Assembly: GCA_963732285.1 (NCBI GenBank)
Contig: CAVSYT010000006.1
Location: 46,610-110,609, forward strand
Source of the DNA: an uncultured Methanomicrobiales archaeon
GTDB taxonomy: Archaea; Halobacteriota; Methanomicrobia; Methanomicrobiales; Methanospirillaceae
DNA length: 64,000 nucleotides
Direction: 5' to 3'
This document shows, piece after piece, positions 435 to 50,205 of the stretch. Position 1 is the stretch's first letter, and each line of letters starts with the position of its first letter. The notes beneath the pieces were generated by a model that saw nothing but the letters and a program-made list of their open reading frames with translations, was not told where the DNA came from and ran no database searches. Position numbers and translations under genes: made by a program.

Positions 435-806
435 GACTTTGTTCAAACGCACATGAACGGGCGTTCGCACCCTGACAATGAAACTCCAAGATATTGCGAT
501 GGTCCCCTGCCTCAGGGCCTCTCTTTAGGCACGGCAGGGCAAGGAGGTTTCAGCACATTTCCGTCATTGATCCGCCGCACAGGAAGCCCCGTCAGGGGCG
601 GCGGGGTTTATCACAATGATGAATGATGTTTGTTTTTCACTATTACCTGAACCAATCGGATTTTCATGGGAAACCCTCTAAAAAAGAGGAGGTCAAGGGG
701 ATGCTCCCCTAGGGCTGCTTCCCTGCTATGGGGAAGAGGGGGGGTCACCCTCCAAACAACCGATATGAAGAAACGAAATATTGGAAAACAGGATTTTAAC
801 AGACCC
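435..806. mobile_element. Composite MITE E1: TIR-bounded MITE carrying a 226-bp IS110-ended unit (448-673)
   Basis: Degenerate TIRs GACTTTGTTCAAAC / GATTTTAACAGACCC; flanks GTTAATCC / GTTAACCT (6/8 TSD); internal modules shared with other copies. Confidence 0.8.
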
Positions 807-812
807 GTTAAC

Positions 813-2470
813 CTACAAAAAGAGCGGCACGTCCTTAAACTCCGTTACGTCAAACATACCCCTGTCGGTGATTCTCAGCGAGGGTATCACGGTTAAGGAA
901 AGAAACGAGAGGTACATGAAAGGATCATCAATTCCGCACATCTTTTGGGTGACCTCATGGAGTTCTTCCATGCGGGTTGCAACGGCCTGATAGGGCAGTG
1001 TTGACATCAGTCCGCCACAGTCCAGCGGGAGGCGGGCTTCCTTCTCCCCGGAGATGGCGACCATCCCCCCCTTCATCTGTTTCACAGCCTCAACTGCCCG
1101 CAGGATCTCTTCGTCACTGGTTCCGACCGCAATCAGGTTGTGGGCATCATGGGCGACACTGGATGCGATTGCACCGTCCTTAAACCCAAAACCATGAACA
1201 AGTCCGATACCGTGTGCACCGGTGCGTACCGGTTGCAGACCACCACTTTAAGGATGTCATGTTCGGATTCGGCACGTTCTTTCATGGAAATTTTCAGGGA
1301 TTCTGTTACGATCTGGTGCGGAATAATACCGATAACCCGTGCAGTGCCTTTATCGGGTAGCCGTAATGCATCTGCGGAGGGAACAGTGCACGGGAATGCC
1401 GGTTTCAGGTTGTGTTCTCCGCCCGGCAGGGTATCTGCCAGTTCCTTACCGGCAACAAATACCTGCTGTACAATAAAGGTGCGGGGATCATTGATGACGC
1501 AGAAATCTGCCCTGCGCCCGGGTGTCAGGGCGCCACGATCATAAAGCCCGAACCGTTCGGATGCAGACAGGGTAGCCATGCGGATCGCAAGTTCGGGTGA
1601 TACTCCGCATTCGATGGCCGTGCGGATGCAGCGATCGATATGCCCGTTGTTCATCAGCAGGTCCGCATGGCAGTCGTCAGTTGCAAAACAACAGCGGGAA
1701 ACGGTGAGCGGGGTGATCAGGGGGGCAAGTTCTTTGATATTGCGTTCTGTCGAACCTTCCCGGATATACAGGAACATGCCTTTATGCAATTTTTCTTCGG
1801 CTTCAGAAAGGGTAGTGCATTCGTGATCGCTCTGGAGCCCGGCAAGGATGTAGGCATTCAGGTCATTGCCGGAGAGCATGGGGGCGTGGCCGTCCCGGAG
1901 GGAAAAAAGCTCCAGTTTTCTTCCGATTTCCGCATCAGCGCCAAGAACCCCGGGATAGTTCATCATCTCGCCCAGACCTGAGACGCCCTCACGGTCTTTG
2001 AACCGGGCAAGATCTTTCGCATCAAGGACAGCCCCTCCGACATCCATCGGTGTCGCCGGGACACAGGATGGAAGCATATACCGGATATCAACCGGAAGTC
2101 CTGACCGCTGGGACAGCATCCAGTCAATACCGGCACTCCCGGCAACATTGGCAATCTCATGGGGATCGGCAATTACAGTTGCAGTCCCGTGCTGCGCTAC
2201 GAGCCGTGCGTATTCCCCGGGGGTGAGCAGGGAGCTTTCGATATGGACATGGGCATCGATGAGGCCGGCAACAATGTATTTCCCGTTGAGATCGTACTCT
2301 TTTTTCCCGGAATAATCCCCGGTGCCAAGAATAATTCCGTCTTTGACGGCAAGGTTCCCTTCATCCCATGTGCAGGTAAACGGGTTGAAGATTTTTGCGT
2401 TGGTGAATACTGCATCCGCCGGGGCAGTGCCCCGGGCTGCATTGATTGTTTCCAAAGAAAATACGGTCAT
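813..2470 (-). CDS. ade: Adenine deaminase (frameshift near 1130-1210)
   Basis: IDAHVHIESS, DPHEIANV, GEMMNYPG, SDHEC, REGS, ATDDCH motifs; C-terminal part in ORF 813-1085 (GLMS...DPFMYLSFLSLTVIP). Confidence 0.92.
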
Positions 2471-2475
2471 ACTGG

Positions 2476-2825
2476 TTACACCACGATATCCCGGATAACG
2501 GCAGTTTTTCGTTCGCCGTTTCCGATAAGGTAAATATAGAGTTTGTAGCTGCCCGGTTCAAGCGACACCGGGAGGGAAACCTGATTTTTCCCTTTTGTTA
2601 AGGGAGCCGGGCGTACACGACCCGGTATTCATTCTGGTGAAGATCCCTGATCTGGTAGATGGTCACCTGTATTCGTGCATCAGCACTATTGTCACTGCTG
2701 CTCAGGTTGACGATGATCTCCCCGTTGTCGTACCGGGCATCATCAATTGCGGGAGATGTACACCCGGCAATGATGACGAGCATGACGCAGAGAAGAAGGA
2801 GAGAAAATCTGTGCAGCCCGCTCAT
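2476..2825 (-). CDS. Small putative lipoprotein (frameshift near 2608)
   Basis: Hydrophobic signal ending IIAGC; the shifted frame continues LEPGSYKLYIYL to TAA at 2476-2478, 5 bp before the ade start. Confidence 0.6.
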
Positions 2826-2935
2826 GATCCAATGGTAAAACGGCAAGGTTAAAAACCGTATGGTTATCTGGCGGACCTGTCGCTGCGGGTTGAAATGAAA
2901 CGGTTCGGTTATTTCAGTCGGAAATCATGGAGTCC

Positions 2936-3221
2936 GATCCTGCTGATACGGACATGGACTATTGAGTTCACACCCCATCATAGCGTTTCTTATGAAAATC
3001 AGCATATTCAGATACGATTTGAAAATGGTTTTTGTATCATTATGATGAACGCCGCCGCCCCCGATGGGACGCCCCCGTGGCGGATCAATGAAGGAAATGT
3101 ACTGAAACTTCCCAGCCCTGCCGTGCCTGAAGAGAGGCCCAGAGGCAAAGGAACCATCGCACTATCAGGGATTTTCATTGTTCTGGAGTGAACGCCCGTT
3201 CATGTGTGTTTCAACAGAGCC
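2936..3221. mobile_element. Composite MITE E2 (degenerate left end; A1-hairpin-B1 unit, no central MITE body)
   Basis: Right end GAACGCCCGTTCATGTGTGTTTCAACAGAGCC; ATGAAAATC at 2992; GC hairpin 3051-3083. Confidence 0.75.
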
Positions 3222-3294
3222 CAAAGCAAAAAAAAAGAACCATTTCCATGCTGCGTCCACAGCAGAACTGCATTAACAGAAGATGAAAGAAAAT

Positions 3295-3696
3295 CTAACA
3301 CGGAGATTGTTTTACGGTTGCATGGGCGCTGCGGATAATCTGCGTTAATTCAGGAAATTCCTCTAATGGATTTCCGCGTCGCTGAACATATGCCGCCTTA
3401 CATTTTTCCAGTGAGTCTCTCATTTCATCATCCAGATCCCTGCCTGAATACAGGATGAACATTGCATCACACCCGCAGGAACGCAGGTGTGCCATCAGCA
3501 AACACCCGTTCATTCCCGGCATAGTATAATCGAATATAATAGCATCGAACTTTTGTGATCGTGCAAGTTCAATAGCCCCGGCTGGTGAATTGCATGTCTG
3601 GATCGCAAAATCCGGCTCCCGGTCAAGTTTGCGGCAGGTAAGATCCAGAAGTACGGGGTCATCGTCAACAAGGAGCACAGAGATCATGAAAATCAT
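3295..3696 (-). CDS. Single-domain response regulator (REC)
   Basis: VLLVDDDP, IIFDYTMPGMNG, LYSG. Confidence 0.85.
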   Translation of the reverse strand: MIFMISVLLVDDDPVLLDLTCRKLDREPDFAIQTCNSPAGAIELARSQKFDAIIFDYTMPGMNGCLLMAHLRSCGCDAMFILYSGRDLDDEMRDSLEKCKAAYVQRRGNPLEEFPELTQIIRSAHATVKQSPC

Positions 3697-4007
3697 CTTC
3701 TTACCGGTATACTAAGATTGGTGTGCGGTAAAATATATCGGGTTGCTCCGGTGTGCTGTACCGGACAATGCCCCATGAGTGATTGTGAAAATAGTCTGCA
3801 CAGACTTTCGGTAAACCGGGACGTGTCATATGCAATGCATTATACGACATTCTTCCCTAGTTGTATAAACATACCCGTACTTCCTGCACAGCAACCCGTG
3901 GTTAAGGCTATATAGTTTGATAGGAAGGTTCTGTATCAGGAATAGAAAATTCCCGGGCATCCCCATAAGGATGAACCCGGTACTATATGTGCAACGTGTG
4001 ATCTGGT

Positions 4008-6954
4008 ATGATTAACGTACTCTACACAGATGATGAACCCGCCCTTCTCGAGATAGGGAAACTGTTTCTTGAGCAGTCAGGAGAGATTCAGGTAGAGACT
4101 GCCATTTCCGCGATTGAAGGTTTACGTCTGCTGGAGGATCACACTTTTGATGCTGTTGTTTCTGATTACCAGATGCCGGGGATGGATGGGATCACCTTCC
4201 TTAAGCAGCTCAAGGCATCAGGAAATACCACGCCGTTCATCATCTTCACTGGCAGGGGTCGTGAAGAGGTGGTCATTGAAGCACTTAACGGGGGTGCTGA
4301 TTTTTATATCCAGAAGGGCGGCGAACCCCTGTCCCAGTTTGCCGAACTTATCCATAAGATAAAAATTGCCGTAGGGCGCAAACGGGCCGGAGATGCACAG
4401 CAGCAGGACGAGATCCGGGTCCAGACGTTGTTGGCGTTTTACCAGATGACCTCTGCGCCGTTAAAGGAACTGATGTCCTTTGCCATAGAAAAGATCGTTG
4501 AGATCTCCACAAGTTCGATTGGGTATCTCGCGTTTGTCAACGATGATGAGACCCTGCTTACCATGTATGCGTGGTCAGCTCGGGCAATGAAGGAATGCGC
4601 AACCCGCGAAAAACCGATTGAATATCCCCTCCACACAACCGGGTTATGGGGAGAGGCAGTCCGTCAGCGCCGCCCGGTGATCACCAATGATTATGCAGCC
4701 AAAAATCCCCTGAAAAAGGGACATCCGCGGGGGCATGTTCCTATCATCAGGCACATGAATATCCCGGTCTTTGATGGCGATCGGATCGTCATGGTTGCCG
4801 GTGTAGGAAACAAAACGTCTGATTATGACCAGCGGGATGTCCAGGAACTCTCGCTCCTGATGAGCGGGTTATGGAATGTTATCAAAGCACGCCGGGCTGA
4901 AGAGGAACTCTTAAAGAAAAACGAGGAACTGGGAGCATCGTATGAGCAGCTGGCTTCTGCGGAAGAGAAACTCCGTGCCAAGGTAGATGAGCTGACCCGG
5001 CAGGAACTGGTGCTCCGGGAGAGCAGGCGCCAGCTTGATGCAATGGCCGCAAACATTCCCGGGGTTGTATACCGGTTTTTCGTGAACCCAGACGGGACTT
5101 ACGGGTTTGATTATATCAGCGAGCGCAGCCGGCAGATACTGGGAATCGAAAACGACCCGGCGACATTTTTTGCCCGGATAACTGAAGGTATCGTTCCAGA
5201 AGACCGGGAACGGTTCCTCAGTTCTTATCCGGCACGCGATCAGCACGAAAACGCTCTGGGAAATTGAAGGCCGGTATGTCAAACCCTCCGGGAAACGGAT
5301 CTGGATAAGCGCGATGTCAAGCCCGGTAATGGAAGACAACCTGCTCATCTTCGATGGTGTATTTTTTGATAATACCGCCCGGAAGCATGCCGAAGAAGAA
5401 CTCTTAAAGAAAAACGAGGAACTGGGTGCATCGTATGAGCAACTTGCTGCCGCTGGAGAAGAACTCCGTGCGAACCTTCATGAACTGACCCGGCAGGAAC
5501 GGGAACTCCGGGAGAGCGAAGAGCGGTACCACCAGTTTTTCAAAACAACGTTAGACAGCACCTTCATCACAACTGCTGACGGGCGGTGGGTAGACTGCAA
5601 TGACGCCTTAGTGGAAACTTTCGGGTATAACAGTCGTGAGGACGTATTCAGCAGGCCCGTATCAGCGTTCTATGCACATCCCGAAGACAGGGCGGCGTTC
5701 CTTAAAATTGTTGAACGGGATGGATATGTAAAAGAATATCCCCTCCTGTGGAGGAAAAAAGACGGGACGATCGTTGATGGCCTTATCACTATTGTACCCC
5801 AGAAAAATCCGGACGGTTCTGTTAAAGGTTTTATCGGCACTGTCCACGATGTCACCGGTAAAAAACGGGTTTCTGCCCCCCTTTCCACTCGCGAACCATT
5901 CAACCAGGGCCGCGTGGAAAACCTGCCGGATTACATTGTCGTCTATGATCAGGATAGAAAGATTCTTTACGTAAACCCGTCTGTGGAAAGTGCGCTCGGT
6001 TATGATGCAGACACGATGATCGGCACATCAATACTCTCGTATATAGCGGAAGAATCCCGGAACCGGGCTCATGAAAACATGACTGCACATGATGAAATGG
6101 GAATAATTCCTGTGTACGAGATCGATCTAATCGCACGTGACGGTTTCCGCAGAACGGTGATTGTGAAAGGAACACAGATCCTGTACGATAACAATCCTGC
6201 GACCCTCCTGCTTCTCATTGACATGACCATGCGAAAGGCGCTTGAAGATCAGCTCAAGGCTCGTGCTGCAGAGCTCTCCCAGATCTCAACCGCATTCCGG
6301 CAGGCGAATAAAAAACTCATGCTCTTATCCAGTATCACCCGGCACGATATCAACAACCAGCTCACGGTGATCCTGGGCTATCTCGGATTACTCGAAAATA
6401 CGCAGTCCGATCCCGAACTCAATGAATTTTTCCTCAAGGTTATCCATGCGGCAAGGCGCATCTCTTCCATGATCGAGTTTACCAAGGAATATGAGGAGAT
6501 CGGGGTATCGGATCCTACATGGCAGGACATAAAAATCGTGGTATACATTGCCGCAAAAGAAGCCCCGCTCGGGCATGTCCTGCTGAAAAATGACATTCCT
6601 GCCGGTACTGAAGTGTTTGCCGACCCGCTCATTGCCAAGGTCTGTTACAACCTGATGGATAATGCGGTGCGGTATGGCGGGAAGATTACGACCATCCGGT
6701 TCGCGGTTGAGGACCCTGAAGGGGATCTGAAACTCATATGCGAGGATGACGGCGACGGTGTTGCTGCAGATGAGAAGGAACGGATCTTTGAGCGCGGTTT
6801 TGGGAAAAACACCGGGCTTGGACTTGCGCTTTCGCGGGAGATCCTCTCTCTCACCGGTATCACTATCCGTGAAACCGGGACGCCGGGAAAGGGAGCACGG
6901 TTTGAGATGACGGTGCCAAAAGATATCTGGCGGACAACCGGAAAGGGACCATAA
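4008..6954 (+). CDS. Hybrid REC-GAF-PAS histidine kinase (frameshift near 5230)
   Basis: REC (YTDDEP, SDYQMP), GAF, PAS repeats, H-box ITRHDINN, NAVRYG, DDGDG, GKNTGLGL; ORFs 4008-5267 and 5314-6954. Confidence 0.88.
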
Positions 6955-9900
6955 TGGGAGCGGCAATCCGGGTTCTCTATGTGGATGATGAATCCACACT
7001 TCTTGAGATCAGCAAACTCTTCCTCGAAGCGGGAGGGGAGTTTGTCGTTGATACGCTCCAGTCTGCACAGGATGCACTTCTCCTGCTGGAGACGGAGCGG
7101 TATGACGCCATTATCTCTGACTACCAGATGCCGGAGATGGACGGCATTGAATTTTTGAAAACGCTGCGTGCCGCGGGCAATACTATCCCCTTTATCCTCT
7201 TCACCGGGCGGGGGCGTGAGGAGATTGTTATCCAGGCACTGAACCATGGTGCTGATTTCTACCTCCAGAAAGGCGGTGAACCCCGGTCACTGTATGCAGA
7301 ACTTGCTCACAAGATTCACCAGTCCGTGAACCGGAAACGGTCTGAAGAGGCACTTAAAGAGAGTGAGATGCGCTTCAGGCAGGTATTCGAAACCCTGCCC
7401 ATTGGCCTGTGGCTTGCAGATAAAAACGGGAAGCTCATCATGGGAAATCCTGCCGGGCAGAAGATCTGGGGGGCAGAGCCCCATTTCGGCCAGGAAGAGT
7501 ATGGTGCCTTCAAGGCATGGCGCATGCCATCCCGCGAGCAGATCCGTCCTGATGACTGGGCGCTTGCCCATGCCGTGAATGAAGGAAGGGTCACTGAGCA
7601 CGAACTTCTCGAGATTGAAGCGTTCAATGGCATTCATAAACATATTCTGAACTGGGTATCTCCGGTCAAAAATGAGAACGATGAGATCTTCGGTGCATTT
7701 GTCATCAACCAGGATATCACGGAATCGGAGCATGCGATCAAGGCGCTGCACGAGAGTGAATGCAGGTTCCGGGCGATCTTTAATGCAACATTTGAGTTCA
7801 TGGCCCTGCTTGAGCCTGATGGAAATATCGTAGTGGTAAATGAAACGGCCCTGCAGTTTGGCGGTTTTTCGCTGGCTGACGTCATACACAAACCCTTCTG
7901 GGAAATCCTCTGGTGGACAATTTCTCCGGAAATTTCTGCCCGTCTGAAGGATGCCGTTTCCCGTGTTGCGTCAGGTGAATTTGTACGGTACGAAGTGGAT
8001 GTTCTGGGTAAAGATAACCGGGTAGTTACCATTGACTTCTCGTTAAAGCCAGTCCGGGATGGTTCAGGAACCATTACTTCCCTTGTGGCTGAGGGGCGGG
8101 ATATCTCCGGGATTAAACGGACAGAACAACTTTTACGGCAGCAGACTGATGCCATGGAATCTGCGATCGATGGTATGGCCATCCTTGACAAAAACCAGCA
8201 GTATAGCTGACATGAACCCGGCCCATGCACGGTTTTACGGATATGATTCTCCTGAAGAACTTATCGGGAAGTCCTGGCGTCTCCTGTATGACGAAGAAGA
8301 GTTAATCCGGTTCGAACGGGAGATCATGCCGGAGTTTATCAGGAAGGGAAATTTCCGGGGAGTGACACGGGGAAAGAAAAAAGATGGCAGCACCTATCCG
8401 CAGGAAATATCGCTCACAGCACTGGAGGACGGCGGACTTATCTGTATCGTGCGGGACATTACTGAACAAAAAAATATTGAAGACGCACTTCGGGAAAGTG
8501 AGGAACGGTTCCGTACTCTTGCAGCTTATATTCAGGATCCTGTCCTTATCCTTGATTTCGACGGGAGTGTGCAGTATGCCAACAATGCAGCATTCCGGTT
8601 CGTAGGAATCCCGCCTTCGCTTGATGTGAGTTCGGAGAATATTGCCACGTTCATTGCACCGGAGTCGCAGGAGAAGGCACTTGCGGATCTGGAAAAGGTC
8701 CGGGTGAGCGGGGGCCCTCTTATTGCGGAATACCGGATGCGGACTGCGCAGGGAGAGATCAAATGGGTTGAGGCGGTGGGTACACGGGTTTCGTGGAATA
8801 AAACAGACCGGGACCTGGTTGCCCTCCGCGATATTACCTCACGTAAACAAGCGGAAGAAGAACTACGTCTCAAGGATAATGCCATTGAATCCTCAATAAA
8901 CGCGATTGCCATCGGAGATTTGTCGGGTAACCTGACCTATGTTAATCCGGCGTTTCTTTCTATCTGGGGCTATGAGGACCGGAATGAAGTGCTTGGCCGA
9001 TCGGCAATCTCCTTCTGGATTGTGGAAGATGAAGCTCAACAGGTTTTTGAAGAGATACACGCAACGGGAAAATGGTCCGGGCAGATGACGGGGCGAAAAA
9101 AAGATGGTACATCCATTCAGGTTCAATTGTCGGGAAACCTGATCCGTGGTGCTTCCGGTGAGCCCGTTGCCATGATGAGCTCATTTATTGATATCACCGA
9201 TCAAAAGCGGATCGAAAAGGCACTCCGGCAGAGTGAACAAAAATTCCGCAGCATGGTGGAAGCATCGCCGGATATAATCTGGGAGACCGATACCCGGGGA
9301 AATTTCACGTATGTGAGTCCCCAATCCAGCCAACAGTCTGGTTACCCCCCGGAAGAGCTCATCGGTTCACCGTTACTAAAGCTCGTTTCTCCGGAATCAC
9401 TGGACGCCATGCATAAAATATTCCTTTCCATTATCCAGGATAAATCTTCATTTATCACGTTTGAAATTCCGGCAGTCCACCGGAATGGCAGCGTGGTTGT
9501 CCTTGAAATCCGTTCGGTAATTATAAACGATGAAGACGGGCAGGTTATCGGCTTACGGGGGATTGCACGGGACATTACTGAACGCAGGAAGGCAGAAGAA
9601 TCATTACAGCTGGCAAACCGGAAACTCCATCTCCTCTCCAGCATCACCCGGCATGACATCAATAACCAGCTTTCTATCATGCGGGGTTATTGTAAACTCC
9701 TGGAAACGAAGATGCATGACCCGGCTTTCTCCGGGTATTTCGAGAAAGTCAATGCATCTTCTGAACGGATCTCTTCTATTATCAGATTTACGCGTGAATA
9801 TGAAGATCTGGGTGTCAAAACCTCTGCATGGCAGGACATATGGCAGTTACTGGAACCAGCAACCCGGGATTTAGGTCTGGGGCATATCCGGCTCATCAAT

Positions 9901-10427: not shown

Positions 10428-10868
10428 GGCTCTGTTGAAACGCACATGAACGGGCGTTAACTCCTGAATTATGAAAATCATTAAAATTTCATATTGGGGA
10501 GGGCTCCCCGCCTCAGGGCCTCTTCGAGGCACGGCGGGGCATGGAGGTTTTTTGTATTTACCGCCCCTAAAACCGCCGCGGGGGCGTCCCATCGGGGGCG
10601 GCGGCGTTCATCATAATTATACAAAAAACATTTTCAAATTCTATTTGAATATGCTGATTTAATATGAAAATGCCAACATCATTTTCATTTTGTCTGCTTG
10701 TAGCCCTTTGGCATCATGTCTGTTTTCATGGGAAATCCTATTTTTCCGTTCTTCACTTCTTCTTCTCGCGTGCTTGGAGGGTGACCCCCTCTCTCTCCCG
10801 GAGGGGGAGGCCGCCCACGGGGAGCATCCCCTTGACCCCTCCCATTTTTAGAGGGTTTCAACAGAGCC
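10428..10868. mobile_element. Composite MITE E3: left TIR occupied (10441-10735), right TIR empty
   Basis: Perfect TIRs GGCTCTGTTGAAAC / GTTTCAACAGAGCC; flanks AGGACACC / GGGACATC (6/8). Confidence 0.88.
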
Positions 10869-10986
10869 GGGACATCCGCAATTTCCTGACTTATATAATA
10901 CTATACGTTTTTTAAACGCCGATCAGAATGCATTTACCGTGATAATAAAAATAAAATTAACGCATGTGGTATTTTCTGGTGATTTG

Positions 10987-27536: not shown

Positions 27537-27723
27537 ATCAGCAATCCCTGTCACAGGTTCAACCGTATAGGGGCAGACTCGATTGTACTTGCTGCAAAGC
27601 AAGTGCCACACTTACATTCGGGCATTATTATATAACCGATCATTTCATATTGCACACCAACGGGAAACTCTTGTGCTGTCCCGACATGTGGCAGGCATGT
27701 GCAGTCAGACCCGGGGGGTAATC

Positions 27724-30501
27724 ATGAGTAAAAAATGGGTGTTTGCTTTCAATGAAGGTGATGGCAGGAACAAGAAACTTCTCGGTGGCAAGGGTGCCAA
27801 CCTGTGCGAGATGACCCAGATCGGTCTCCGGGTTCCTCCCGGTTTTGTTATCACAACGGAAGCATGTCTTGCGGTGGTAAATGATCCCAAAAAAGAACTC
27901 CCGCAGGGAATGATGGAACAGGTGCATACGCATCTTGCAGAAGTGGAACGCACAAGCAACCGTGTCTTTGGCGGGAGAAATAACCCTCTCCTGATCTCGG
28001 TTCGCTCGGGTTCTGCCATGTCCATGCCGGGGATGATGGACACCATCCTCAACCTTGGTCTCAATGCAGAGACTCTCCAGGGTCTCATCGCCCAGACAGG
28101 AAACACACGGTTCTGTTACGATGCGTACCGGCGCTTCATCCAGTTGTTCGGGAAGGTCGCCTTAGGTGTACCGGAAGCGGACTTTGATGCAGAGTTTGAG
28201 GCAATAAAGCAAAAGGCCGGGGCAAAGCATGATGTGGATCTCTCCGCTAATGATCTTGCCGAAATATCAGAACGTTTCCTTTCCGTTGTCCGGCGCAGCA
28301 CCGGTAAACCCTTTCCTTCTGATCCCCGCGAACAACTCGAGATCGCTATCCGGGCGGTATTCAATTCATGGAGCGGGAAACGTGCTGTTGACTACCGGCG
28401 GGAATTCAGGATAACGCCCGAAATGGCCAATGGTACTGCGGTAAATGTCATGCAGATGGTCTTTGGCAACATGGGCAATGATTCTGCTACCGGCGTTGGT
28501 TTCACCCGCGATCCCGGCACGGGTGAGAATGTCATGTTCGGGGAGTATCTCGTAAATGCACAGGGAGAGGATGTCGTAGCCGGTATCCGCACGCCAAAGC
28601 CGGTTGCTGCCATGGAAGAAGAGATGCCGGGCCTGTATGGTGAATTGCAGGACCTGCGCAATAAGCTCGAAGCGCACTATAAGGAAGTCCAGGACTTTGA
28701 ATTTACCATTGAAAAGGGCACGCTCTACTGCCTCCAGACACGCAATGGCAAGATGAATGCCCATGCCCTTGTCCGCACATCGGTAGAGATGGTCAGGGAC
28801 AGGCTTATCGATAAACGCCAGGCACTCCTCCGCATCCAGCCGGAGATGCTGGAACAGATGCTTTTCCCGCGACTGGACCCGAAGGTAACAAAAAAGCCCA
28901 TCGCAAAAGGGTTACCTGCATCCCCGGGAGTTGCTGTCGGTGTTGCGGTGTTCGATGCAGACCGTGCCGAAAAACTGGGACGGACCGGTGAGAAGGGTGA
29001 TTCTTGTCCGGGAAGAGACCAAGCCTGAAGATATTCACGGTTTCTTTGCATCGCAGGGAATCCTGACGAGCCGGGGTGGTAAGACTTCTCATGCCGCCGT
29101 AGTTGCACGGGGCATGGGTAAACCCTGTGTATCCGGTGCCGAAGGTATTCACATAAATGTCCGCATGCGTCACGCGAGAGCGGGCGATCAGGAATTCGGT
29201 GAAGGGGCATTGATCACGATCGACGGCACAACCGGAGCAGTCTATCTAGGCGAGGTTGCGATGATCGAGGCGGAGTTCTCGGAGGAACTTGCAGTCCTGC
29301 TGGAAATGGCTGATGGTATGGCGAGGCTCAGGGTGATGGCCAACGCAGACACTCCGCTTGATGCGGAACGTGCGCTGAAGTTCGGCGCCATGGGTATTGG
29401 CCTGTGCCGCACCGAGCGCATGTTCAACGGCACAGAACGCCTCCCTGTCATGATAGAGATGATTGTTGCCGAGACACAGGCAGACTCGCCAGGTTGCGCT
29501 GGACAAATTACTCCCTATCCAGCGTGAAGATTTCAAGGCGATCTTCAGGGTCATGTCCCCCCTGCCGGTGACCGTCCGCCTGCTTGATCCTCCTATCCAT
29601 GAATTCCTGCCCTCAGAGTACCTGCTGGTCGAAGACCTTGAACATCTCCATCACCTGCGCGAGATCCTGCGGGGCATGCAGGTGCTGTCAGATGCGGTGA
29701 CTTTTATGAACCAGACACAGGAGATCCAGTCCCTTGTGCAGCAATTCACCGACCCGGTGCTGGTGGACCAGGCGATCGCAAAAAAGGAGGCAATCTTGCG
29801 GAAAGTCCGTGCCCTGCACGAGGTCAACCCGATGCTTGGCCATCGCGGGGTCCGGCTCGGTCTTACCTTCCCGGAAGATCTATACCATGCAGATCCGGGC
29901 AATTCTCGAAGCTGCAGCTGAGTGCCAGAAAGCGGGTATCGTGGTACATCCCGAGATCATGGTCCCCAGGTCTGTACGGCACAGGAACTCGTGCGGGTAA
30001 AAGTGTGGGTTGACGAAATCCGTTCATCAGTCGAAGCCGCTCACAACGTGAAACTGAATTTCATGTTCGGGTCCATGCTCGAAGTGGTCCGTGCCTGCAT
30101 GCGGGCAGATAACCTTGCAGAAATGGCGGAGTTCTTCTCCTTTGGAACAAATGACCTTACGCAGGCAACCTTCTCCTTCTCGCGCGAAGATGCCGAGAAC
30201 AAGTTCCTTCCCATGTACAACCAGAGCGGCATCCTGCAGGACAACCCGTTTGAGGTGCTGGATGTCAAAGGTGTTGGCCGCCTCATGGAATCGGCGGTGA
30301 AGTGGGGGCGCCATACCCGTCCAAATATGAAAGTAGGCATTTGTGGAGAGCACGGCGGGCACCCTGCCTCCATCCGTTTCTGCCACAAGATTGGGCTGAC
30401 GCTACGTGTCCTGTTCCGGCCCCCGTATCCCGATTGCCCGGCTGGCAGCTGCCCAGGCTGCTATCCTGGAAGGGGAAAAGATGGCTGACAAGGCGGTATG
30501 A
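27724..30501 (+). CDS. ppdK: Pyruvate,phosphate dikinase copy 1 (several frameshifts)
   Basis: [68 protein letters not shown]. Confidence 0.93.
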
Positions 30502-36314: not shown

Positions 36315-36636
36315 GGCTCTGGTGAAATCCTGTTTTCCCGTTCTTCGCTTCTTTTTTCCGGATGCCTGGAGGGTGACCCACTTTCTTTTTTAGAGGGTTT
36401 CCCATAAAAATCCGATTTTTTGATACAGTGAGTTAATGGGGGTTCGCTCCAAACCCTCATAGGATTGTGCCGCCGCCCCCGAATGGGCGCCCCCGCGGCG
36501 GATTAAAAATGGAAATGTGCTGGAACCTCCTTGCCCTGCCGTGCCTCGAAGAGGTCCTGAGGGGGGGACCCTTGCACTATTATGGATTTTCATTGTTCTG
36601 GAGTGACTCCCCGTTCAGATTCGTTTCAACAGAGAA
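36315..36636. mobile_element. Composite MITE E6: shortened body, 226-bp unit in right TIR (36402-36627)
   Basis: GGCTCTGGTGAAATCC ... GTTTCAACAGAGAA; flanks TGGTATAG / GGGTATGG (6/8). Confidence 0.82.
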
Positions 36637-38121: not shown

Positions 38122-38181
38122 ATAACCATCCTGCTGTGTCTCGCCAGACGATGACTATAAGCAGACAACAAAGGGTAATGC

Positions 38182-38732
38182 GGCTCTGTTGAAACAGGCA
38201 TGAACCGTTCGGGTGCACACCTGAATTATGAAAATCATTAAAATTTCATATTTGGGAGGGCTCCCCGCCTCAGGGGCTCTCTTTTGGCTCGGCGGGGCAT
38301 GGAGGTTGTTTGCATCTGTAGTCCCGAAAACCGCCGCGGGGGCGCCCCGTTGGGGGCGTCGTCGTTCATCATAATTATACTAAAAACATTTTCAAATACT
38401 ATCTGGGTAATCTGATTTTCATGGGAAATTCTATTTTCCCGTTCTTCGCTCCTTCTTCTCTACTGTTTGGAGGTTGACCTCCCTCTTTTTCAGAGGGTTT
38501 CCCATGAAAATCCGTTTAGTTCAGGTAATATTGGGAAAAGCATCATTTACCATTATGATAAACCCCGCCGCCCCGGATGGGACGCCCCCGCGGCGGATCA
38601 ATGACGGAAATGTGCTGAAACCTCTGTGCCCTGCAGTGACTCGGAGAGGCCCGGAGGCAGGGAACCCTTGCACTATCATGGATTTTCATGGTTAGGGTGT
38701 GAACGCCCGTTCATGTGCATTTCAACAGAGTC
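38182..38732. mobile_element. Composite MITE E7: both TIRs occupied (38195-38428 and 38502-38723)
   Basis: TIRs GGCTCTGTTGAAA / TTTCAACAGAGTC; flanks GGTAATGC / TATAATGC (6/8). Confidence 0.88.
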
Positions 38733-38918
38733 TATAATGCATAATCTCAGTGCCCTATTTTTTAAAAAACACCCGCCATCATTTTTTATGAATTCCGGGT
38801 ATACAGGGGAAATATATATCTGACTCGATGTTTACCTAATTACAACAGGTAATGAAAGTATTCGCACCTTCAATAAGCCAGTATTCTCTCCCTGTATCGT
38901 CGGGTTGTCCCGAATATC

Positions 38919-41589: not shown

Positions 41590-41669
41590 TGATATTGCAC
41601 TGGCATTTCATCATTTTTACCGGATTTCTATCGGTGCTGCCCCACGGCAAAGCATGAATTTAATGGATT

Positions 41670-41960
41670 GGGGGGCTCCCTCCAGGCAGCCGAAAAGAAG
41701 AAGCGAAGAACGGGAAAATTGGATTTCCGATGAAAATCAGCAAATTCAGATAGTATTTGAAGATGTTTTCAGGAATAATTATGATGAACGCCGCCGCCCC
41801 CAACGGGGCGCTCCCGCGGCGGTTTCAGGAACTGCAGAGTCAAACAACCCCGATGTCCTGCCGTGCCTGAAGAGAGACCCTGAGACAGGGAACTCTCGCA
41901 CTATCATGGATTTTCATTGTTCGGGAGTGAACTTCCGTTCTTACAGGTTTCAAAAGAGTC
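41670..41960. mobile_element. Composite MITE E8 (left end truncated; 224-bp unit 41728-41951)
   Basis: Partial MITE body, GGATTTCCGATGAAAATC junction, GC hairpin, end GTTTCAAAAGAGTC. Confidence 0.75.
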
Positions 41961-42092
41961 GGATTTCAGTTTTTTTTAACACTGTCCGTTTCCAGTCTGG
42001 TATCGGACCAAAAAACTCTGTGGGGCATATGCGAAATCTTACGAAGATGCAGGATAGTTTTTACCTGATACCGGTATATAGTGGAATTACGC

Positions 42093-43055: not shown

Positions 43056-43229
43056 TGCCAGTCACAACGATCACTGTATACAAAAAGACCATATCCTGTG
43101 AATGAGAAGGAAAGAATAGGAGCGATCAATGAAAGCAGATGAACCCATCAGTTTCCCGCTTGATGTGCCTTTCAATCCTTATGCAGATATACCAGAGCAG
43201 GGAACTATGAATCCGGGAGTTATCCGGCT

Positions 43230-44269
43230 ATGAAAACCATTGGTGTCCTGACCGGGGGAGGTGACTGCCCCGGGCTTAACGCGGTAATCAGGGCTGTGGA
43301 GAGGGCGGGGAAAAAATATGACTTTGAAACCCTCGGTATCCGGAACGGGTGGCAGGGTCTCATCGATGGCGATGTTGAGCCGCTCACCGATTTCTCCGTT
43401 TCAGGTATTCTTCCCAAGGGTGGAACGATCCTTGGCACATCCCGTACGGACCCGTTGAAAAATATATCGGATTTCCAGAAGATCAAAGCCAATATAAAAA
43501 AATACGGCATTTATGCGCTCATTGTCATTGGCGGTGACGGCACCCTTTCTGCTGCCCGCGACATAGCAAAGCAGGGAATTCCTGTTGTGGGCATTCCCAA
43601 AACCATAGACAATGATATCAGCGGAACCGATATGACATTCGGTTTTGATACCGCAGTGGCCACGGTCACTGAAGCAATCGACCGTCTCCATACAACGGCG
43701 GAGTCTCACCACCGTATCATCGTTGTTGAGGTTATGGGCCGGAATGTCGGGTGGATTGCGGTCACTGCAGGAATTGCCGGGGGAGCTGACGAGATCCTGA
43801 TCCCTGAAGTGCATTTTACCCTGGACGGGGTCTGCAAAAAATTAAAGGCCCGGTATGATGCCGGTAAAAAATTCTCGATTGTTGTCATTGCAGAAGGTGC
43901 TCACGCGAAAGATCTCGGCGTGACTCCGTTCCTGAGAATGAACTGGATGAATGCGGTCATGAGAAGTTTGTGGGTGTTGGCAACATCCTGGGTAAAGAAC
44001 TTGAACGCCGGATGGGTATTGAAACACGCGTTACCATTCTCGGCCATGTCCAGCGGGGTGGATCACCAACGGCATTTGACCGGGTTCTTGCAACCCGTTT
44101 CGGTGTTGCCGCAGTCCAGCTCGTGTATGCCGGTGATTTCGGGATGATGGTTGCCCTGCAGGGAAACAAGATCACCAGCATCCCTCTTGAAATCGCAGTG
44201 AACCAGATAAAAACGGTTGATGATGATTTCTATGAACTGGCTATGACAGTAATCGGTGGTCAGAGATGA
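43230..44269 (+). CDS. pfkA: PfkA-family 6-phosphofructokinase (frameshift near 43930)
   Basis: LTGGGDCPGLN, GGTILGTSR, GGDG, PKTIDND, VEVMGR, LGHVQRGG. Confidence 0.92.
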
Positions 44270-45024
44270 ACAAAATCCCGCCTTCTCAAAAAGGGATGCC
44301 CACCGATCCGGTGTTTTCGGTCTGCTGGGACGGGCCTCTGCCGGAACCGGTTGTCAGGACGGCAGAGGATCTCCGGAGTGTGCTGGCAAATCCCGGATGT
44401 TCCTGCACAGGACCGGTTTATTACATGTATCGTGATGTTGCCCGGACCTCCGAAGATCGCAGCTGGCTTGCTGCACAGCACCTTCGATTCGATATTACGG
44501 TTATCCCCCCTCGTGAACTCTGCGGTGAGTACAATAAAACCAAAGGGCATTTTCACCCTCCCGATCCTTCCGGTACCGGCTACCCGGAGATATACGAAGT
44601 CCTTGCCGGTGAAGCACATTACCTGATCCAGAATCATGATTGTTCTGATGTCGTGATGATAGCAGCCTGTGCCGGGGATATCGTTGTCGTCCCTCCCGGC
44701 TACGGGCATGTGACCATCAACCCGACTCATGCTACGATCCTCCAGATGGCAAATATTGTATCCTCGCGTTTTTCCAGCAATTATCACGGGTATGAAGCGC
44801 AGAACGGGGCTGCATTTTTTGAATGGATAAAAGAGGGTTTTGTAAAAAATCCGACCTACCGGAATCACCCGAATCTCCGGCTCGTAAAAGCGCAGCGACG
44901 TGCAGATGTAACGGATGCAATCCCCGATCCGCTCTATAACCTCATTGAAAAACGTGCACCGGTTCTCGAATTTCTCAATCGCCCGGAAAAATTCGAATCA
45001 TTATTCCGGGGACTTTATCCGTAA
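44266..45024 (+). CDS. pgi: Cupin-type glucose-6-phosphate isomerase
   Basis: TKGHFH, YPEIYEVLAGEA, VPPGYGHVTIN; ATGA overlap with pfkA. Confidence 0.85.
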   Translation: MNKIPPSQKGMPTDPVFSVCWDGPLPEPVVRTAEDLRSVLANPGCSCTGPVYYMYRDVARTSEDRSWLAAQHLRFDITVIPPRELCGEYNKTKGHFHPPDPSGTGYPEIYEVLAGEAHYLIQNHDCSDVVMIAACAGDIVVVPPGYGHVTINPTHATILQMANIVSSRFSSNYHGYEAQNGAAFFEWIKEGFVKNPTYRNHPNLRLVKAQRRADVTDAIPDPLYNLIEKRAPVLEFLNRPEKFESLFRGLYP

Positions 45025-45313
45025 AACTTTTTTTATGGAACTATACTGACAACTGAAGTAATTAGTGAAATAGTTGCGAACCGTTTCTGTAAACCACGTT
45101 ATTTTTCGTTCTGATTAACCAAAATGAGATAAATTCAGTAGAAATATTGGAGATGACAGCATCATTTTTATCAAAACCGGTTCGCTTTTAATTCCCGTCT
45201 TCACGAAAAAGGAAATGGCAACACATCAGGACAGGCGGTTTCAGTTATCAAAACTATTCCATGACCCCCCGATTCCCTTTTTCTGGTATCGTTTGGGCAG
45301 ATTATAAAATATT

Positions 45314-45786
45314 GGCTCTGTTGTAACGCCCATGAACCGTTCGGGTTCACTCCCAAACTATGAAATCCATGATAGTGCGATGGTTCCCTGCCTCAGGGCC
45401 TCTCTGAGGAATGGCAGGGCAAGGAAGTTTCATTACATTTCTTTCATTGATCCGCCGCGGGTGTGCCCCTACTGGGGCGGCGGGACAATCCTACGGAGGT
45501 TTGGGGCGAACCCCCATTAACTCATTGTATCAAAAAATCAGCATATTCAGATAGTATTTGAAAATGCTTTTTGTATAATTATGATGAACGCCGCCGCCCC
45601 CATGGGACGCCCCCGCGGCGGTTCAGGTGCCTGCCCGTCTTTAAACCATTTGCCCAGCGAGGCCCCGACGATGCGGCCGAGCGACCCCCAAAGGGGGTGG
45701 GTTGACTCTTAAAAACTATAAGAAGAGAGTATACGATTTTCATACATCGGGTATGAACTCCTGTTCATGCCTGTTTTAACAGAGCC
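45314..45786. mobile_element. Composite MITE E9: two opposed units fused, no MITE body
   Basis: GGCTCTGTTGTAAC / GTTTTAACAGAGCC; flanks AAAATATT / GAAATATT (7/8); two GC hairpins. Confidence 0.85.
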
Positions 45787-45802
45787 GAAATATTTAAAAA
45801 AA

Positions 45803-46519
45803 TTAGTGTTCTTGGGTTCTCCGGATGAAGAGCACAGCACCGAGTATTCCAATAATTAACACTGCCGGAAGAAACATGGTCGGGAACTCGGGAACCGGCA
45901 TTTCTGTTTCCACAACCTCTACATCATCAATAAGGGCTCCGTAAGAATCTGCCATTCCGCTACCGGTAAATGATATTGTGGTTAAAGCCCCTGCAGCTTC
46001 ACGTTCGAATGTATATTTTGTCCAACTTCCCATCCCGCCCGCGGTAATTTCAGACGGAGCTCCGGTCCAGTCAAACTGAAGTGTGCAGGGATTATGATTA
46101 TCGTTCGGACGGCATCTTTCTTCATATGAAACACTATACCGTGCACCTGCTATCGTTGCAAACGTTTGCGATATAGTCACGTTTGCCGGTTCACCACTGA
46201 GTGAACCGGTTGGCCCGTCCCAGTCGGTATCCAGTTCCCCATGCTGTTTACCTTCAAATGAAGGAATACTTTCAACCGTATTGGTTTTCTGTAACTCCAT
46301 ATTCGCAATTGCCGGGATGTTCTTTCCATTATAGGAAGTGGGGTTGTTTGCCCATTGGACACTCCAGTCAAGACCAGCAGTCCCATCGGGAAAAATGTCC
46401 CAGCTGTTTGCTACCAACGGATTTTCAAACCCGCCGTTGTTTACAAGGTTTGCTGAAGCCACGCCGATACACGCAAGGAACAGTATCAGGATCAGTCCCA
46501 GTGTTAATGGTTTTTTCAT
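45803..46519 (-). CDS. Secreted PEF-CTERM protein with jelly-roll-like (DUF642-like) domain
   Basis: Signal peptide, NLVNNGGFENP, GALIDDV, VPEFPT + TM + RR. Confidence 0.8.
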   Translation of the reverse strand: MKKPLTLGLILILFLACIGVASANLVNNGGFENPLVANSWDIFPDGTAGLDWSVQWANNPTSYNGKNIPAIANMELQKTNTVESIPSFEGKQHGELDTDWDGPTGSLSGEPANVTISQTFATIAGARYSVSYEERCRPNDNHNPCTLQFDWTGAPSEITAGGMGSWTKYTFEREAAGALTTISFTGSGMADSYGALIDDVEVVETEMPVPEFPTMFLPAVLIIGILGAVLFIRRTQEH

Positions 46520-46806
46520 GATAATCATCCTCATCCGGAATGCGGGATCAGTAAGAGCCCGGTATACATTCAGGTCAACCAAAAATTTACTTATCCAGAT
46601 ATTATTATATGCAATGCACCGCTGCCTTGCATGCTGTTTCTGATAAAAACAGGTTACCCGGTCAATTGAGGTGATGGTATAGTGCTCTGGACTCGAACAG
46701 GATTGTACCGATGCCTCAGTCCGGGCACTATTCGGGAAGATTTAAGCAAATGAAAAATGCTGGAATCATCATTGATCCGCCGTGCCCCGGTACTGCCCTG
46801 TGAGTT

Positions 46807-49312
46807 TCATGAAAATTTCACTCCCAGGTACCCTCCCAGTTCTTCAAACAGTCTGGTCCAAAGTTTTGCGTGTTCATCGCCGGACACTGAAAGTGCCTGC
46901 ATGGCCGCTGCTCTTTTCCGGCCGATGAGGAAATAGTGATTCTGGCATTCCCAAAGATTGTATGTCAGGGAAAGTGGGGATAACAGCGTAAAGGTGGTTG
47001 TGATCTTTTCGAGCAGGATCACATCATCCGGGTTCTCAAAAAGACGATGCATAAGATTGGTTATTGCATTGCTTGCAGTAAAATTGAGAGTTGCTGTGTC
47101 CGGGCTGAATTTTCCTTTTGTCATTTCATCGACAAGAACCGCAAGTCTTTGTGTATCGATATTGTCATTGGTAAGAACTTTCGTGAGATCAAGATTGATG
47201 ATATACCAGACCGGATCCTCGAGCACTTTTGGCGGGGGAATCTGCATCTCTCTCATGGCATGGAGAAGTGGAGAAAACTGGTTGTAGATGTGCCGGAATG
47301 CAGATTCCGTATCCGCAAGTGTGGAGTTAAGAACTGAATATCAGTACTTTCCGTTGTCCATCCCGTAACAGATCCCAGAGTGAATAGAAACGGTTCCCAA
47401 AATGGTTTTCAAGGCAGACAATCATCTTTGGGATGTCGCTTCTGGAAAAACCATTCAGTAATTCATCCCGCATGGCAGCATATGTTTTATCATCCGGAAA
47501 TTCTGTAGCGCCGCCAATAAAATTATGATTTCCCAAATGAAGGACGGCAAACATCAGGGTATTTTCTTCCCAGGTGATATCGGAATACAGGTAGACCTTG
47601 CCGATGGCCAGTTTAAGGTCGCCAGCTTCTTTTTTATTATATGCCTCGTTCTTAAGGGTAAAATTCTTTATCCGTATCTTTTCCGGGGAATCTTCAATCA
47701 GCGATGACAACGCATAATGAAAACCCACCCGGGAAAGATCGACAACGGAAGTCTGGACAAAGCGCCGGTATACCTGCGCCCCGTTTTTGTATTCAGGCAC
47801 GTTACTGGGGGCTTTTTTTAACTGGTAAATAAAGTCCGGTTCCGGATCAAAACCTGCCACTTCCCGGACCAGTTGCATCGCACGACAGGCATACCGCAGC
47901 ACCTGGACCGATTCTATGCCGGAAATGTCGTCAAAGAACCACCCGCAGCTTGTATACATGAGCATAGCGTTTCTCTGGATCTCGAGCAGTTTGAGTGCCT
48001 CGATCTTCTCTTTGGAGGAAAGAGTACGGACCGTATGTTTTGAAAAAAACAACTCAATATTCTGTGGTGAACGGTCCAGGATGACATCAATATAATCATC
48101 CCGTGCCTGCCAGGGGTCAGTCACAAATGAGCTCATTCGTTCATTAAAAAGTGTCACCAGTGTCTGACGGAGCCCGTCCATGGCTTCCCGAAGCGGGGAC
48201 CGCCATTTCTGCCGTGATGTGAGAGGACAACTTTTTATCGATGTCGCGTCTTCCGTTGGTACGGAATGGATTAATGGATTTGAAGATGCTGTCTGGACAA
48301 TAGAACCCGGGGTACAACACCCGCAATCCGCTTTCCAGCGTTCGACGCCATGGATGCAGCTCCATGATGAATTTTCAATTATTTCGACCTGGTGTGCTGG
48401 TGGATTATTACTCAGGTATTCTCCATAGATAGTAATCCGGGCAAGATTTTTGGATTCTATGAGATAGAGGGCATATGCAAGCGCCATATCCCCAAACCGG
48501 TGGTGATGCCCATATGTCTCACCGTCGGATGCGATATTCAAAAGCCCGGACTGTATCTGGTACTGGGAAAAAAACCGCATCATCCTGTTTGCATACACTT
48601 CACCATTTTCCAAAAGATTGGAAAATGCAATTTCCTGTGAAATGCCTTCGTCATAGAAAAAGATGACAATCGAATCTCCGGATGGTAACCGGCAGAGGTA
48701 GGGTAGTGAAGTATCAATCCCTCCCCGGGTTACATCCGTCCAGTGTGAGTCATTGACCGGTTTGATCCTTTGTGCCTGTTTTGGAGAGAGGATCGTAAAC
48801 GCAATTCCCTGTTCTGCCAGAATCTCAAGGGTTTCTACATCAACTGCGGTTTCGGGCAGCCACATGCCTTCGGGTTTTCGTTTGAACCGGGATATGAAAT
48901 CCTTAATTCCCCAGATAACCTGGGTATGTTTATCCCTGCTGTTTGCAAGGGGCATAATCACATGGTTATACACCTGGGCAATGGCAGAACCATGCCCTGA
49001 GAACCTGTTCATGCTCTCTTTATCTGCATCAAGGATTGCCTGGTACACTTCCCTGTTGTTCTGTTCCAGCCATGTGAGCAGGGTAGGACCTACATTGAAA
49101 CTGATCTTTGCATAATTGTTGACAATATCGATGATCTTCCTGTTCGAATCGAGAATGCGGGATGCCGCATTTGGTGCATAGCATTCTGCAGTTATGCGTT
49201 CATTCCAGTCATGATAGGGGTATGCTGAATCCTCTGTCTCAACTTCCTCAAGCCAGGGGTTTTCACGGGGAGGCTGGTAAAAATGCCCATGTATGCAGAT
49301 AAAACGACTCAT
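46807..49312 (-). CDS. GH57-related protein with DUF3536-type region (frameshift near 47335)
   Basis: IHGHFYQPPRENPW, GMWLPET, SDGETYGHH, SWSCIHGVERW, MYTSCGWFFD. Confidence 0.85.
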
Positions 49313-49526
49313 GCCAAGATCACCTCGTAAAAACTTTCAACTATGACTCAATCATTTTTGGATATTCACCCATTCTCTTTTTACCAGATAATAAACTTCC
49401 GTGCATGAAATGTTCCGGGTTTACTCAAGGGATAACTCAACAGTGGATATCTTCAGACTCGTTAATTTTAATTTCCCGTTGATTTGAAAATCTACAGAAA
49501 ACTACCTGATAAAAGAATACTATTCC

Positions 49527-50205
49527 GGTTCTGTTGAAACGCACATGAACCGTTCGGGTTCACTCATGAATTATGAAAATCATTAAAATTTCATATTGGG
49601 GAGGGCCCCCCACCTCAGGGCCTTTCCGAGATGCAGCGGGGCATGGAGGTTTTTTGCCTTTGCAGTCTCTAAAACCGCCGCGGGGGCGTCCCATCGGGGG
49701 CGGCGGCGTTCATCATAATTATACAAAATACATTTTCAAATATTATCTGAATATGCTGATTTTTCTGGGAAATTCAGTTTCCCGCGATTTGCTTCTTCTT
49801 CTCAACTGCTTGGAGGGGGAGGCAGTGCTAGGGGAGCGTCCCCTTGACCTGCGGTTTTTCATTACCCTAATGGGGGCCATAGCACTATTGGGAAATGCCC
49901 GGGAGATGGGGACAAAAAGTTCGATATGCTGGAGACCCCAGGAGCGACTCCTTGTTATTTCTGGATGGTGTCTCATGAAAATCCGATTAGTTCAGGTAAT
50001 ATTGAAAAACAAACATCATGTACCATTACGATAAACCCCGCCGCCCCCGAAGGGGCGCCCCGCGGCGGATCAATGACGGAAAATTTACTGACACCTCCTT
50101 GCCCTGCCGTGCCTAGGAGGGGCCCTGAGGCAGGGAACCATCGCACTATCATGGATTTTTATTGTTAGGGAGTGAACTCCCGTTCATGTTTGTTTTAAAA
50201 AAACC
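49527..50205. mobile_element. Composite MITE E10: both TIRs occupied, body with segment D
   Basis: GGTTCTGTTGAAAC / GTTTTAAAAAAACC; units 49540-49772 and 49973-50196; flanks ACTATTCC / ACTTTTTA (5/8). Confidence 0.82.

Follow-up and report, generated by a model that had tools for sequence, protein, structure and literature searches.

Short units with IS110-type ends in the inverted repeats of an archaeal MITE family: probable non-autonomous derivatives of an IS110 lineage

A 64,000-nucleotide stretch of the genome of an uncultured Methanomicrobiales archaeon (GCA_963732285.1, contig CAVSYT010000006.1, C6:46610-110609; referred to here as the window) was found to contain members of a family of ~222-bp units, which occupy a fixed position within the terminal inverted repeats (TIRs) of a MITE (miniature inverted-repeat transposable element) and share their ends and insertion site with a resident insertion sequence (IS) of the IS110 family, designated here as IS110a. 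These units are probably non-autonomous derivatives of the IS110a lineage, moved in trans by its recombinase and bridge RNA. Their descent from IS110 machinery is supported by the shared ends and site, by covariation of the bridge RNA guides, by the occurrence of both empty and filled paralogous sites and by head-to-tail dimers of units; mobility in trans and excision as circles we infer from these sequence patterns, as would be the case for any present-day activity, and the copies in this genome look old. The metagenome-assembled genome (MAG) comprises 2.18 Mb in 11 contigs and is 63% complete. Archaeal markers are present (a Hef-associated nuclease, CDC48 and PAN-like ATPases), and the named relatives of its IS110 place the genome in Methanoregula, order Methanomicrobiales.

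The unit family, its ends and its insertion site

The family is represented by ~85-100 copies in this genome. A profile hidden Markov model (HMM) of the unit returned 128 nhmmer matches genome-wide, with E values down to 9e-87, of which 84 are near full length; both ends were resolved for 81 units, most of which measure 217-231 bp. All nine units listed in the initial annotation were located in the window and their coordinates refined, minus-strand copies (36401-36623, 38501-38719, 41727-41947 and 49972-50192) included. The longer one proved to be an ordinary unit (10441-10732) containing a nested 62-bp foreign element (10661-10722), and the list was incomplete, lacking the unit at 2989-3208, a pair in 45314-45786 and a pair at ~61145-61453.

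When eight listed units were aligned in a common orientation, mean column identity was 70%, with the conserved columns clustering in the two ends and two GC-rich hairpins; majority fractions amount to 0.84-0.92 in the left end, right end and hairpins and to 0.72-0.76 in the linkers. Similarity to the IS110 left end extends over the first ~45 nt of the unit, and similarity to its right end over the last ~12 nt, in agreement with the original proposal that the units begin and end like the IS, and the unit HMM matches IS110 over those parts only. The elements common to the units and IS110a are the left tip, a small hairpin (GAAC-N4-GTTC) with covariation between IS variants, the subterminal ATGAAAATCC and the right end, whose a-type form CATGGG is exact in 47 of 81 units. 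Inverted repeats within the unit consist of CATGAA/TTCATG near the tips (6 nt) and a 10-nt subterminal repeat; the long TIRs of a classical MITE are absent, as is any target duplication beyond AAA.

The order of sequences at a site is unique flank, GGCTCTGTTG, AAA, unit (C[G/A]CACATGAAC...GATTTTCATGGG), AAA, yCCT and the remaining MITE. Directly upstream, GCTCTGTTG is present with at most two mismatches in 73 of the 81 end-resolved units, a motif that was not demanded by the search pattern. AAA adjoins the left side of 78/81 units, a count that is partly built into the search pattern, and the right side of 69/81. IS110a occupies the same site, and the earlier claim of a fixed placement in the MITE TIR, in one orientation, was borne out. 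The core had been described as GAAA-like; comparison with three other IS110 variants identified it as AAA instead, and the G that precedes it is part of CATGGG, the right end, at one flank and of CTGTTG, the target, at the other. At a few unit sites, TTG-AAA is all that is present, without a recognisable MITE.

The host MITE has ends that both read GGCTCTGTTGAAAyCCT, with 17-bp TIRs and an 8-bp target-site duplication (TSD), and the target form of its TIR is GGCTCTGT[T/A]GAAAyCCTCT. Among 73 TIR-to-TIR elements, 46 have a TSD with 7 or 8 matching positions (0/73 in an offset control). These elements fall into length classes of 50-150 bp (~25, empty at both ends), 300-450 bp (~35, with one unit), 450-700 bp (~12, with two units) and 1633 bp (one, the MITE carrying IS110). 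The anticipated coexistence of filled and empty TIRs was thereby observed genome-wide, the empty sites being paralogous rather than allelic. At least four MITE subfamilies with a common ~17-nt tip were distinguished, and units occur in all four. An autonomous element with these TIRs was not found in the assembly, where only the IS110-carrying MITE was detected besides the MITEs, and the window contains no DDE transposase; the 'DDE' nature of the MITE we infer from its TIRs and 8-bp TSD only.

No recombinase open reading frame (ORF) is present in the ~222-bp units. Their interior is made up of two GC hairpins that are near-perfect and have no guide-bearing loops, and the initial statement that it resembles neither the transposase nor the non-coding region of the IS was upheld, with no IS similarity beyond nt ~45 and no bridge RNA features. 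The two hairpins are near-invariant across species, and the outer stem of hairpin 1 exhibits a compensatory swap from T-A to C-G; these pair changes were tallied by hand, and RNAalifold, applied to an HMM-register alignment of 86 copies, returned almost no consensus structure. The unit may accordingly be read as IS110a ends around a two-hairpin cargo resembling repetitive extragenic palindromic (REP) sequences. A search of Rfam gave no window match at the gathering threshold and only chance-level matches when the units or the IS left end were searched; a match to MIR2646 merely reflects an inverted unit pair. Two candidate functions of the interior were rejected, namely that of a degenerate bridge RNA (there are no internal loops, no GUGGGCAG/CUGCCCAC closing stem and no similarity past nt ~45) and that of a TIR-complementary guide in linker GGAGGTTTCAGCA, which is not kept in the second unit subtype.

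Hairpin modules lacking IS110 ends were also observed, in genome G031 (loci L045 and L046) and as solo copies in this genome (G000 C9:160742-160870, C1:32053-32177 and C3:147099-147206), sometimes with a third hairpin, GGGGTATGGGGGCATCAGCCCCC. Such modules could be either decayed units or an independent REP-like repeat.

The units and MITEs of the window are as follows.
448-670, plus strand: unit, 223 bp; diverged TIR tip GACTTTGTTC plus AAA at 435-447; followed by AAA (671-673) and the MITE body, the other TIR ending at 806.
2989-3208, minus strand: unit missed initially; TIR tip GGCTCTGTTGAAA at 3209-3221; on its right side lies part of the left end of another unit, inversely oriented.
10441-10732, plus strand: long unit, 292 bp, enclosing a 62-bp element; TIR tip at 10428-10440, MITE body to 10868.
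10661-10722, minus strand: 62-bp element designated mini-b (CAGACATGATGCC...GGCATTTTCATATT), with AAA on both sides, at CCCATGA-AAA-TCAGC.
14945-16577, unstranded: MITE carrying IS110 in one TIR; 1633 bp TIR to TIR; 8-bp TSD CGATTATC.
18605-18822, plus strand: unit, 218 bp; TIR tip GGCTCTGGTGAAA at 18592-18604.
36401-36623, minus strand: unit, 223 bp, in one TIR of the MITE at 36315-36636; the other TIR (36315) is empty.
38182-38732, unstranded: doubly filled MITE, with a unit at 38195-38425 (plus), the MITE body and a unit at 38501-38719 (minus).
41727-41947, minus strand: unit, 221 bp; TIR tip at 41948-41960.
45314-45786, unstranded: a tail-to-tail pair of units flanked by two TIR tips; right ends and MITE body deleted; TSD matching at 7/8 positions.
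49540-49769, plus strand: unit, 230 bp; TIR tip GGTTCTGTTGAAA at 49527-49539.
49972-50192, minus strand: unit, 221 bp, at a degenerate TIR from another MITE subfamily (…CAGAAATAACAAGGAGTCGCTCC).
61145-61453, unstranded: degenerate, truncated tail-to-tail unit pair.
The tail-to-tail pairs at 45314-45786 and 61145-61453 look like products of the central deletion of a long inverted repeat.

IS110a and the covariation of its bridge RNA

A genome-wide Pfam search revealed only two IS110 loci in the assembly. One of these, IS110a, is inserted at the same AAA of the MITE TIR as the units and in the same orientation, both following GGCTCTGTTG-AAA and preceding AAA-yCCT. An orthologue in another Methanoregula genome (G007) is 87% identical and intact, with a recombinase of 419 aa (P0001) that likewise contains the DEDD and Transposase_20 domains. 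The parts of the window copy are listed below.
15082-16564, minus strand: IS110a, 1483 bp; left tip CACACATGAAC at 16564, right end ...CAATTTTCATGGG finishing at 15082.
16565-16567 and 15079-15081: flanking AAA.
16368-16564, minus strand: left non-coding end, with a 5' hairpin, the subterminal CATGAAAATTG and a bridge RNA closed by GUGGGCAG/CUGCCCAC; within it, target loop GAGAGGAUUUUA / UGUUGUAGAAAGU and donor loop 3' side GGAUGGGAAAUUG.
15108-16367, minus strand: recombinase gene with DEDD_Tnp_IS110 and Transposase_20 domains; two frameshifts relative to P0001; mechanical ORF at 15308-16333.

The 197-nt left end of IS110a was predicted to fold into a 5' hairpin followed by the stem GUGGGCAG/CUGCCCAC, which encloses two hairpins with large internal loops. 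For comparison, six left ends were aligned, representing four variants (a, the C2 copy, G038 and b) with 40-49% protein identity to the a-type. The fold is kept in this alignment, in which 11 of 36 pairs have changed on both sides in a compensatory manner, and the loops of the four variants were shown to change in concert with both the insertion site and the right end of the same element, as listed here.
a: donor loop 3' side AUGGGAAA, right end and core CATGGG-AAA; target loop 3' side GUAGAAA, left target and core CTGTAGAAA (G005, G045) and CTGTTGAAA here.
C2 copy: donor loop 3' side AUGACAAA, right end and core CATGAC-AAA; target loop 3' side GAUAAAAAAAC, left target and core GTTAAAAAAAC.
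G038: donor loop 3' side AUGCCAAA, right end and core CATGCC-AAA; target loop 3' side GGGAAAAAAAC, poly-A target.
b: donor loop 3' side AUAUUAAA, right end and core CATATT-AAA; target loop 3' side CAUGAAAA, left target and core CCCATGA-AAA.

On the 5' side of the first loop, the a-type carries AGAGGAUUU, the reverse complement of which, AAATCCTCT, matches the right target. In IS621, the left guides have top-strand sense and the right target guide is complementary to the top strand (PMC11208160). Given this covariation and its IS621-like strand logic, the core is AAA rather than GAAA, and the bridge RNA of IS110a is directed both to the MITE TIR and to a donor junction shared by the units.

Two of the compared variants deserve separate mention. 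The C2 variant (G000 C2:374900-376390, minus strand; locus L021) is 49% identical to IS110a, contains a frameshift and internal stops, and is inserted between CCTGTTAAAAAAAC and CAAAATTAAAAATC; similarity to its own target-loop region is seen in the ~60 nt upstream of the left end, and the element may therefore have landed beside the remnant of a related left end. The Methanoregula genome G038 contains ~20 copies, at least 99.7% identical to one another, of a 1.5-kb IS110 that is 46% identical to IS110a (L016, L020, L026, L028 and L029). These copies, which are apparently those of an active family, are inserted after A runs, have target loop GGGAAAAAAAC and donor loop AUGCCAAA, and are not associated with units.

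In the proposed mechanism, the recombinase gene and the bridge RNA would have been lost from the units, which would retain only what is needed in cis, i.e. the left ~45 nt (tip C[G/A]CACATGAAC, small hairpin and ATGAAAATCC) and the right ~12 nt (GATTTTCATGGG) next to AAA. A copy of IS110a would supply recombinase and bridge RNA in trans. Units would be excised as circles before re-insertion, the donor loop pairing with CATGGG-AAA at the junction of right and left unit ends and the target loop with CTGT[T/A]G-AAA-yCCTCT in the TIR of the abundant MITE family with 8-bp TSDs. Strand exchange at AAA would then insert the unit at a point 13 nt into the TIR and in a single orientation, leaving it bordered by AAA at either end without duplicating anything else.

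Independent insertion, distribution and alternative explanations

The units could also have spread passively, if IS110-type elements had entered MITE TIRs once or a few times and the MITE transposase had then copied the composites around the genome. This explanation would account for the 8-bp TSDs that flank whole composites, filled ones included, and for the outer 13 nt of the TIR, which remain intact after unit insertion. Yet units were found in either TIR, in both TIRs and in each of the four MITE subfamilies, with left-end and right-end subtypes spread over most of these contexts; ~25 MITEs are empty at both ends, and the few units at TTG-AAA lack a recognisable MITE. In Mantel tests, moreover, no correlation appeared between the identity of units and that of the 70 nt of MITE next to them (r = -0.12, p = 0.95; r = 0.15, p = 0.19). 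The tandem junction TTTTCATGGG-AAA-C[G/A]CACATGAAC was encountered 22 times in 9 of 108 genus genomes (reversed control, 0) and joins different units head to tail with one common AAA, as expected if another unit is inserted at the AAA next to one already present. Together with the behaviour of mini-b described below, these results argue for repeated independent insertion, and passive spread as the sole process is unlikely. Head-to-tail dimers were observed at L050 (G075:C16), L048 and L052; the first element at L050 has IS110a-type ends and a different interior, and several cargo types therefore use such ends in the genus.

Sediment-metagenome contigs of a ~90%-identical relative, drawn from two DNA contig sets with a 0.07 share of words and in which many joints represent cross-mapping among repeats, were used for strain comparison. 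The whole composites 38137-38791 and 45309-45796 are absent from the contigs of this strain, and passive spread thus still contributes. The precise empty alleles predicted for two loci (GGCTCTGGTGAAATCCTCATTTT and CGACTTTGTTCAAACCCTCTAAAA) gave 0 matches in the metagenome contigs. The nearest species representative in the genus, with 79% identity in a neighbouring ADP-PFK gene, is too distant for a comparison of orthologous insertions.

Unit matches were obtained in 18/18 genus genomes of a first draw and in five of five further, mostly closed ones, as opposed to 0/12 genomes from other families of the order, and full units with the same ends and target are present in G005, G009, G013, G016, G049 and G067. 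IS110 relatives, in turn, were detected in only 8 of 60 genomes, and viral contigs yielded neither a relative of the IS110a recombinase nor a right-end/TIR junction.

Several observations weigh against movement of the units by IS110a. Five unit-rich genomes have no match to PF01548 (DEDD), and one of these, G067, which consists of two contigs and is 96% complete, has no PF02371 match either, even though its units are fairly young (mean identity 91.5%, maximum 97.8% among eight of them). Within the present genome, mean pairwise identity of units is 78% (maximum 94.6%); these values give no sign of recent movement, and the family here looks ancient rather than active. IS110a, the sole a-type copy in this incomplete MAG, carries two frameshifts relative to its intact orthologue. 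Its target guide has A at position -2, where 80/81 unit sites have T, and a right-donor guide, sought in the 5' side of its donor loop, could not be assigned. Finally, the expected presence/absence polymorphism at strain level was not obtained, since the contigs of the ~90%-identical relative contain no unit-only allele at an orthologous locus and display loss of whole composites only.

Regarding the frameshifts, other genes in the assembly are broken as well: a pyruvate-phosphate dikinase gene at 27583-30488 is broken up over four overlapping ORFs, and the CDC48-type ATPase at 59011-60450 is a truncated one. Split genes of this kind make assembly indel errors likely, and the two frameshifts in IS110a may be sequencing errors.

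The mismatch between the genus-wide occurrence of units and the patchy occurrence of IS110, including its absence from G067, would be explained if another enzyme, e.g. a host-encoded or unassembled recombinase, moves or moved the units, their ends being the result of capture or convergence. This is very unlikely, given that the same ends are conserved in IS110 variants that are 40-49% identical and have other targets, which marks them as an IS110 trait, and that the donor guide of IS110a exactly matches the right end and core of the units; no alternative candidate enzyme was seen. MAGs, furthermore, tend to lose multi-copy IS elements. For the near-closed unit-rich genomes without IS110, loss of the partner or an external source is a real possibility.

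As the two hairpins are the best-conserved part of the unit across species, with a compensatory T-A to C-G change in hairpin 1, and are also seen in G031 and the present genome as modules lacking IS110 ends, the unit might instead be a host-used REP-like or small-RNA module (acting, for example, in transcript 3' end stability or termination) with IS110-like ends as an incidental relic. Such a module has no match among Rfam families and would leave the fixed insertion point and orientation, the flanking AAA and the conservation of the ends (0.84-0.92) unexplained. We therefore consider it highly improbable as an account of the whole unit; taken as a statement on the cargo only, it is compatible with derivation of the units from the IS110a lineage.

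A further tier and comparison with known systems

Mini-b, the 62-bp element with IS110-like tips and AAA on both sides, is present in nine copies in the genome. Seven of these lie at CCCATGA-AAA-TCAGC, which is the reverse complement of the unit right end, and one lies at the same motif in a unit left end; copies outside the window are located at G000 C3:230046, C3:81838, C4:50298, C5:64642, C6:127142, C9:302131 and C9:107845. A full-length element, IS110b, ~40% identical to IS110a, was found at the same AAA, in a unit right end in G060 (L017, G060:C27, 491-2254, reverse orientation) and in the right end of IS110a itself in G007 (L012, G007:C63, ~2715 onward, reverse orientation). The insertion site and the right end of IS110b are matched by its target loop CAUGAAAA and donor loop AUAUUAAA, respectively, and mini-b appears to be a deletion derivative of the IS110b lineage, which is not in this assembly. 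To the three tiers recognised initially (MITE, IS110 and IS110-dependent units), the 62-bp element on the unit right end adds at least a fourth.

We lean somewhat towards regarding the whole as a stack of parasites in Methanoregula, composed of the MITE, of IS110a and its ~222-bp derivatives aimed at the MITE TIR, and of IS110b and its 62-bp derivative aimed at IS110a-type right ends. The units would then exemplify high-copy bridge recombination carried out wholly in trans on minimal donors, with a cargo that maybe has a role of its own. Bridge RNA recombinases are being developed as programmable genome editors, and little is known of their natural behaviour beyond single autonomous copies; an archaeal IS110 lineage with a ~100-copy family that needs protein and guide from elsewhere suggests a natural counterpart of in-trans experiments with minimal donors. 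The units and their sites may also serve as natural pairs of donor and target, with mismatches, for testing guide tolerance. The arrangement further suggests that one mobile element has specialised on the end of another, and a 62-bp element on that one in turn. About 1% of the genome, otherwise unexplained intergenic structure, can in this way be described as nested repeats.

Like classical MITEs, one of which is their host element, the units are small, non-coding and multi-copy and would depend on an enzyme in trans; they differ in having no long TIRs, no TSD beyond AAA, and one target sequence and orientation. With REP sequences, bacterial interspersed mosaic elements (BIMEs) and REP doublets forming hairpins (REPINs), the cargo shares GC-rich, extragenic and dispersed hairpins that also occur without IS110 ends, whereas the hairpins in units travel between IS110 ends and imply no TnpA-REP/RAYT-type gene.

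Among bridge systems of the IS110 family, including IS621 (PMC11208160, PMC11208158), IS110a is similar in its RuvC-like DEDD and Tnp domains, in a left-end RNA with target and donor loops, and in loops whose 3' sides read in the sense of the left target and core and of the left donor and core, respectively. The core is CT in IS621 and AAA here, the host is archaeal, and the units contain neither protein nor bridge RNA. A 22-bp donor suffices for IS621 when the bridge RNA is provided in trans (PMC11208160), and a 2026 preprint describes tandem non-coding repeat units adjoining IS110 genes and a bridge RNA acting in trans.

The idea of non-autonomous IS110 derivatives is not wholly new, as MITEPpu9 is a published precedent within the family. 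This element, the ssr9 module of ISPpu9 in Pseudomonas putida KT2440, is present in eight copies and forms transposase-dependent minicircles (PMC12288879). Both MITEPpu9 and the units are short, without a recombinase, and bounded by sequences resembling the left and right ends of a resident IS110-family element; both occur beside the IS and alone, within repeated sequence (REP there, MITE TIR here), with the core at both ends and a small palindrome near the left tip (GCCC-N4-GGGC there, GAAC-N4-GTTC in units). MITEPpu9 is bacterial, has the core AG and a small-RNA cargo complementary to the antisense RNA of its IS, and its minicircles were demonstrated by experiment. The units are archaeal and genus-wide, ~10-fold more numerous (~85-100 copies) and have the core AAA; their two-hairpin REP-like cargo is unrelated to the IS, their target is the TIR of another transposon, and they are themselves the target of a further parasite.

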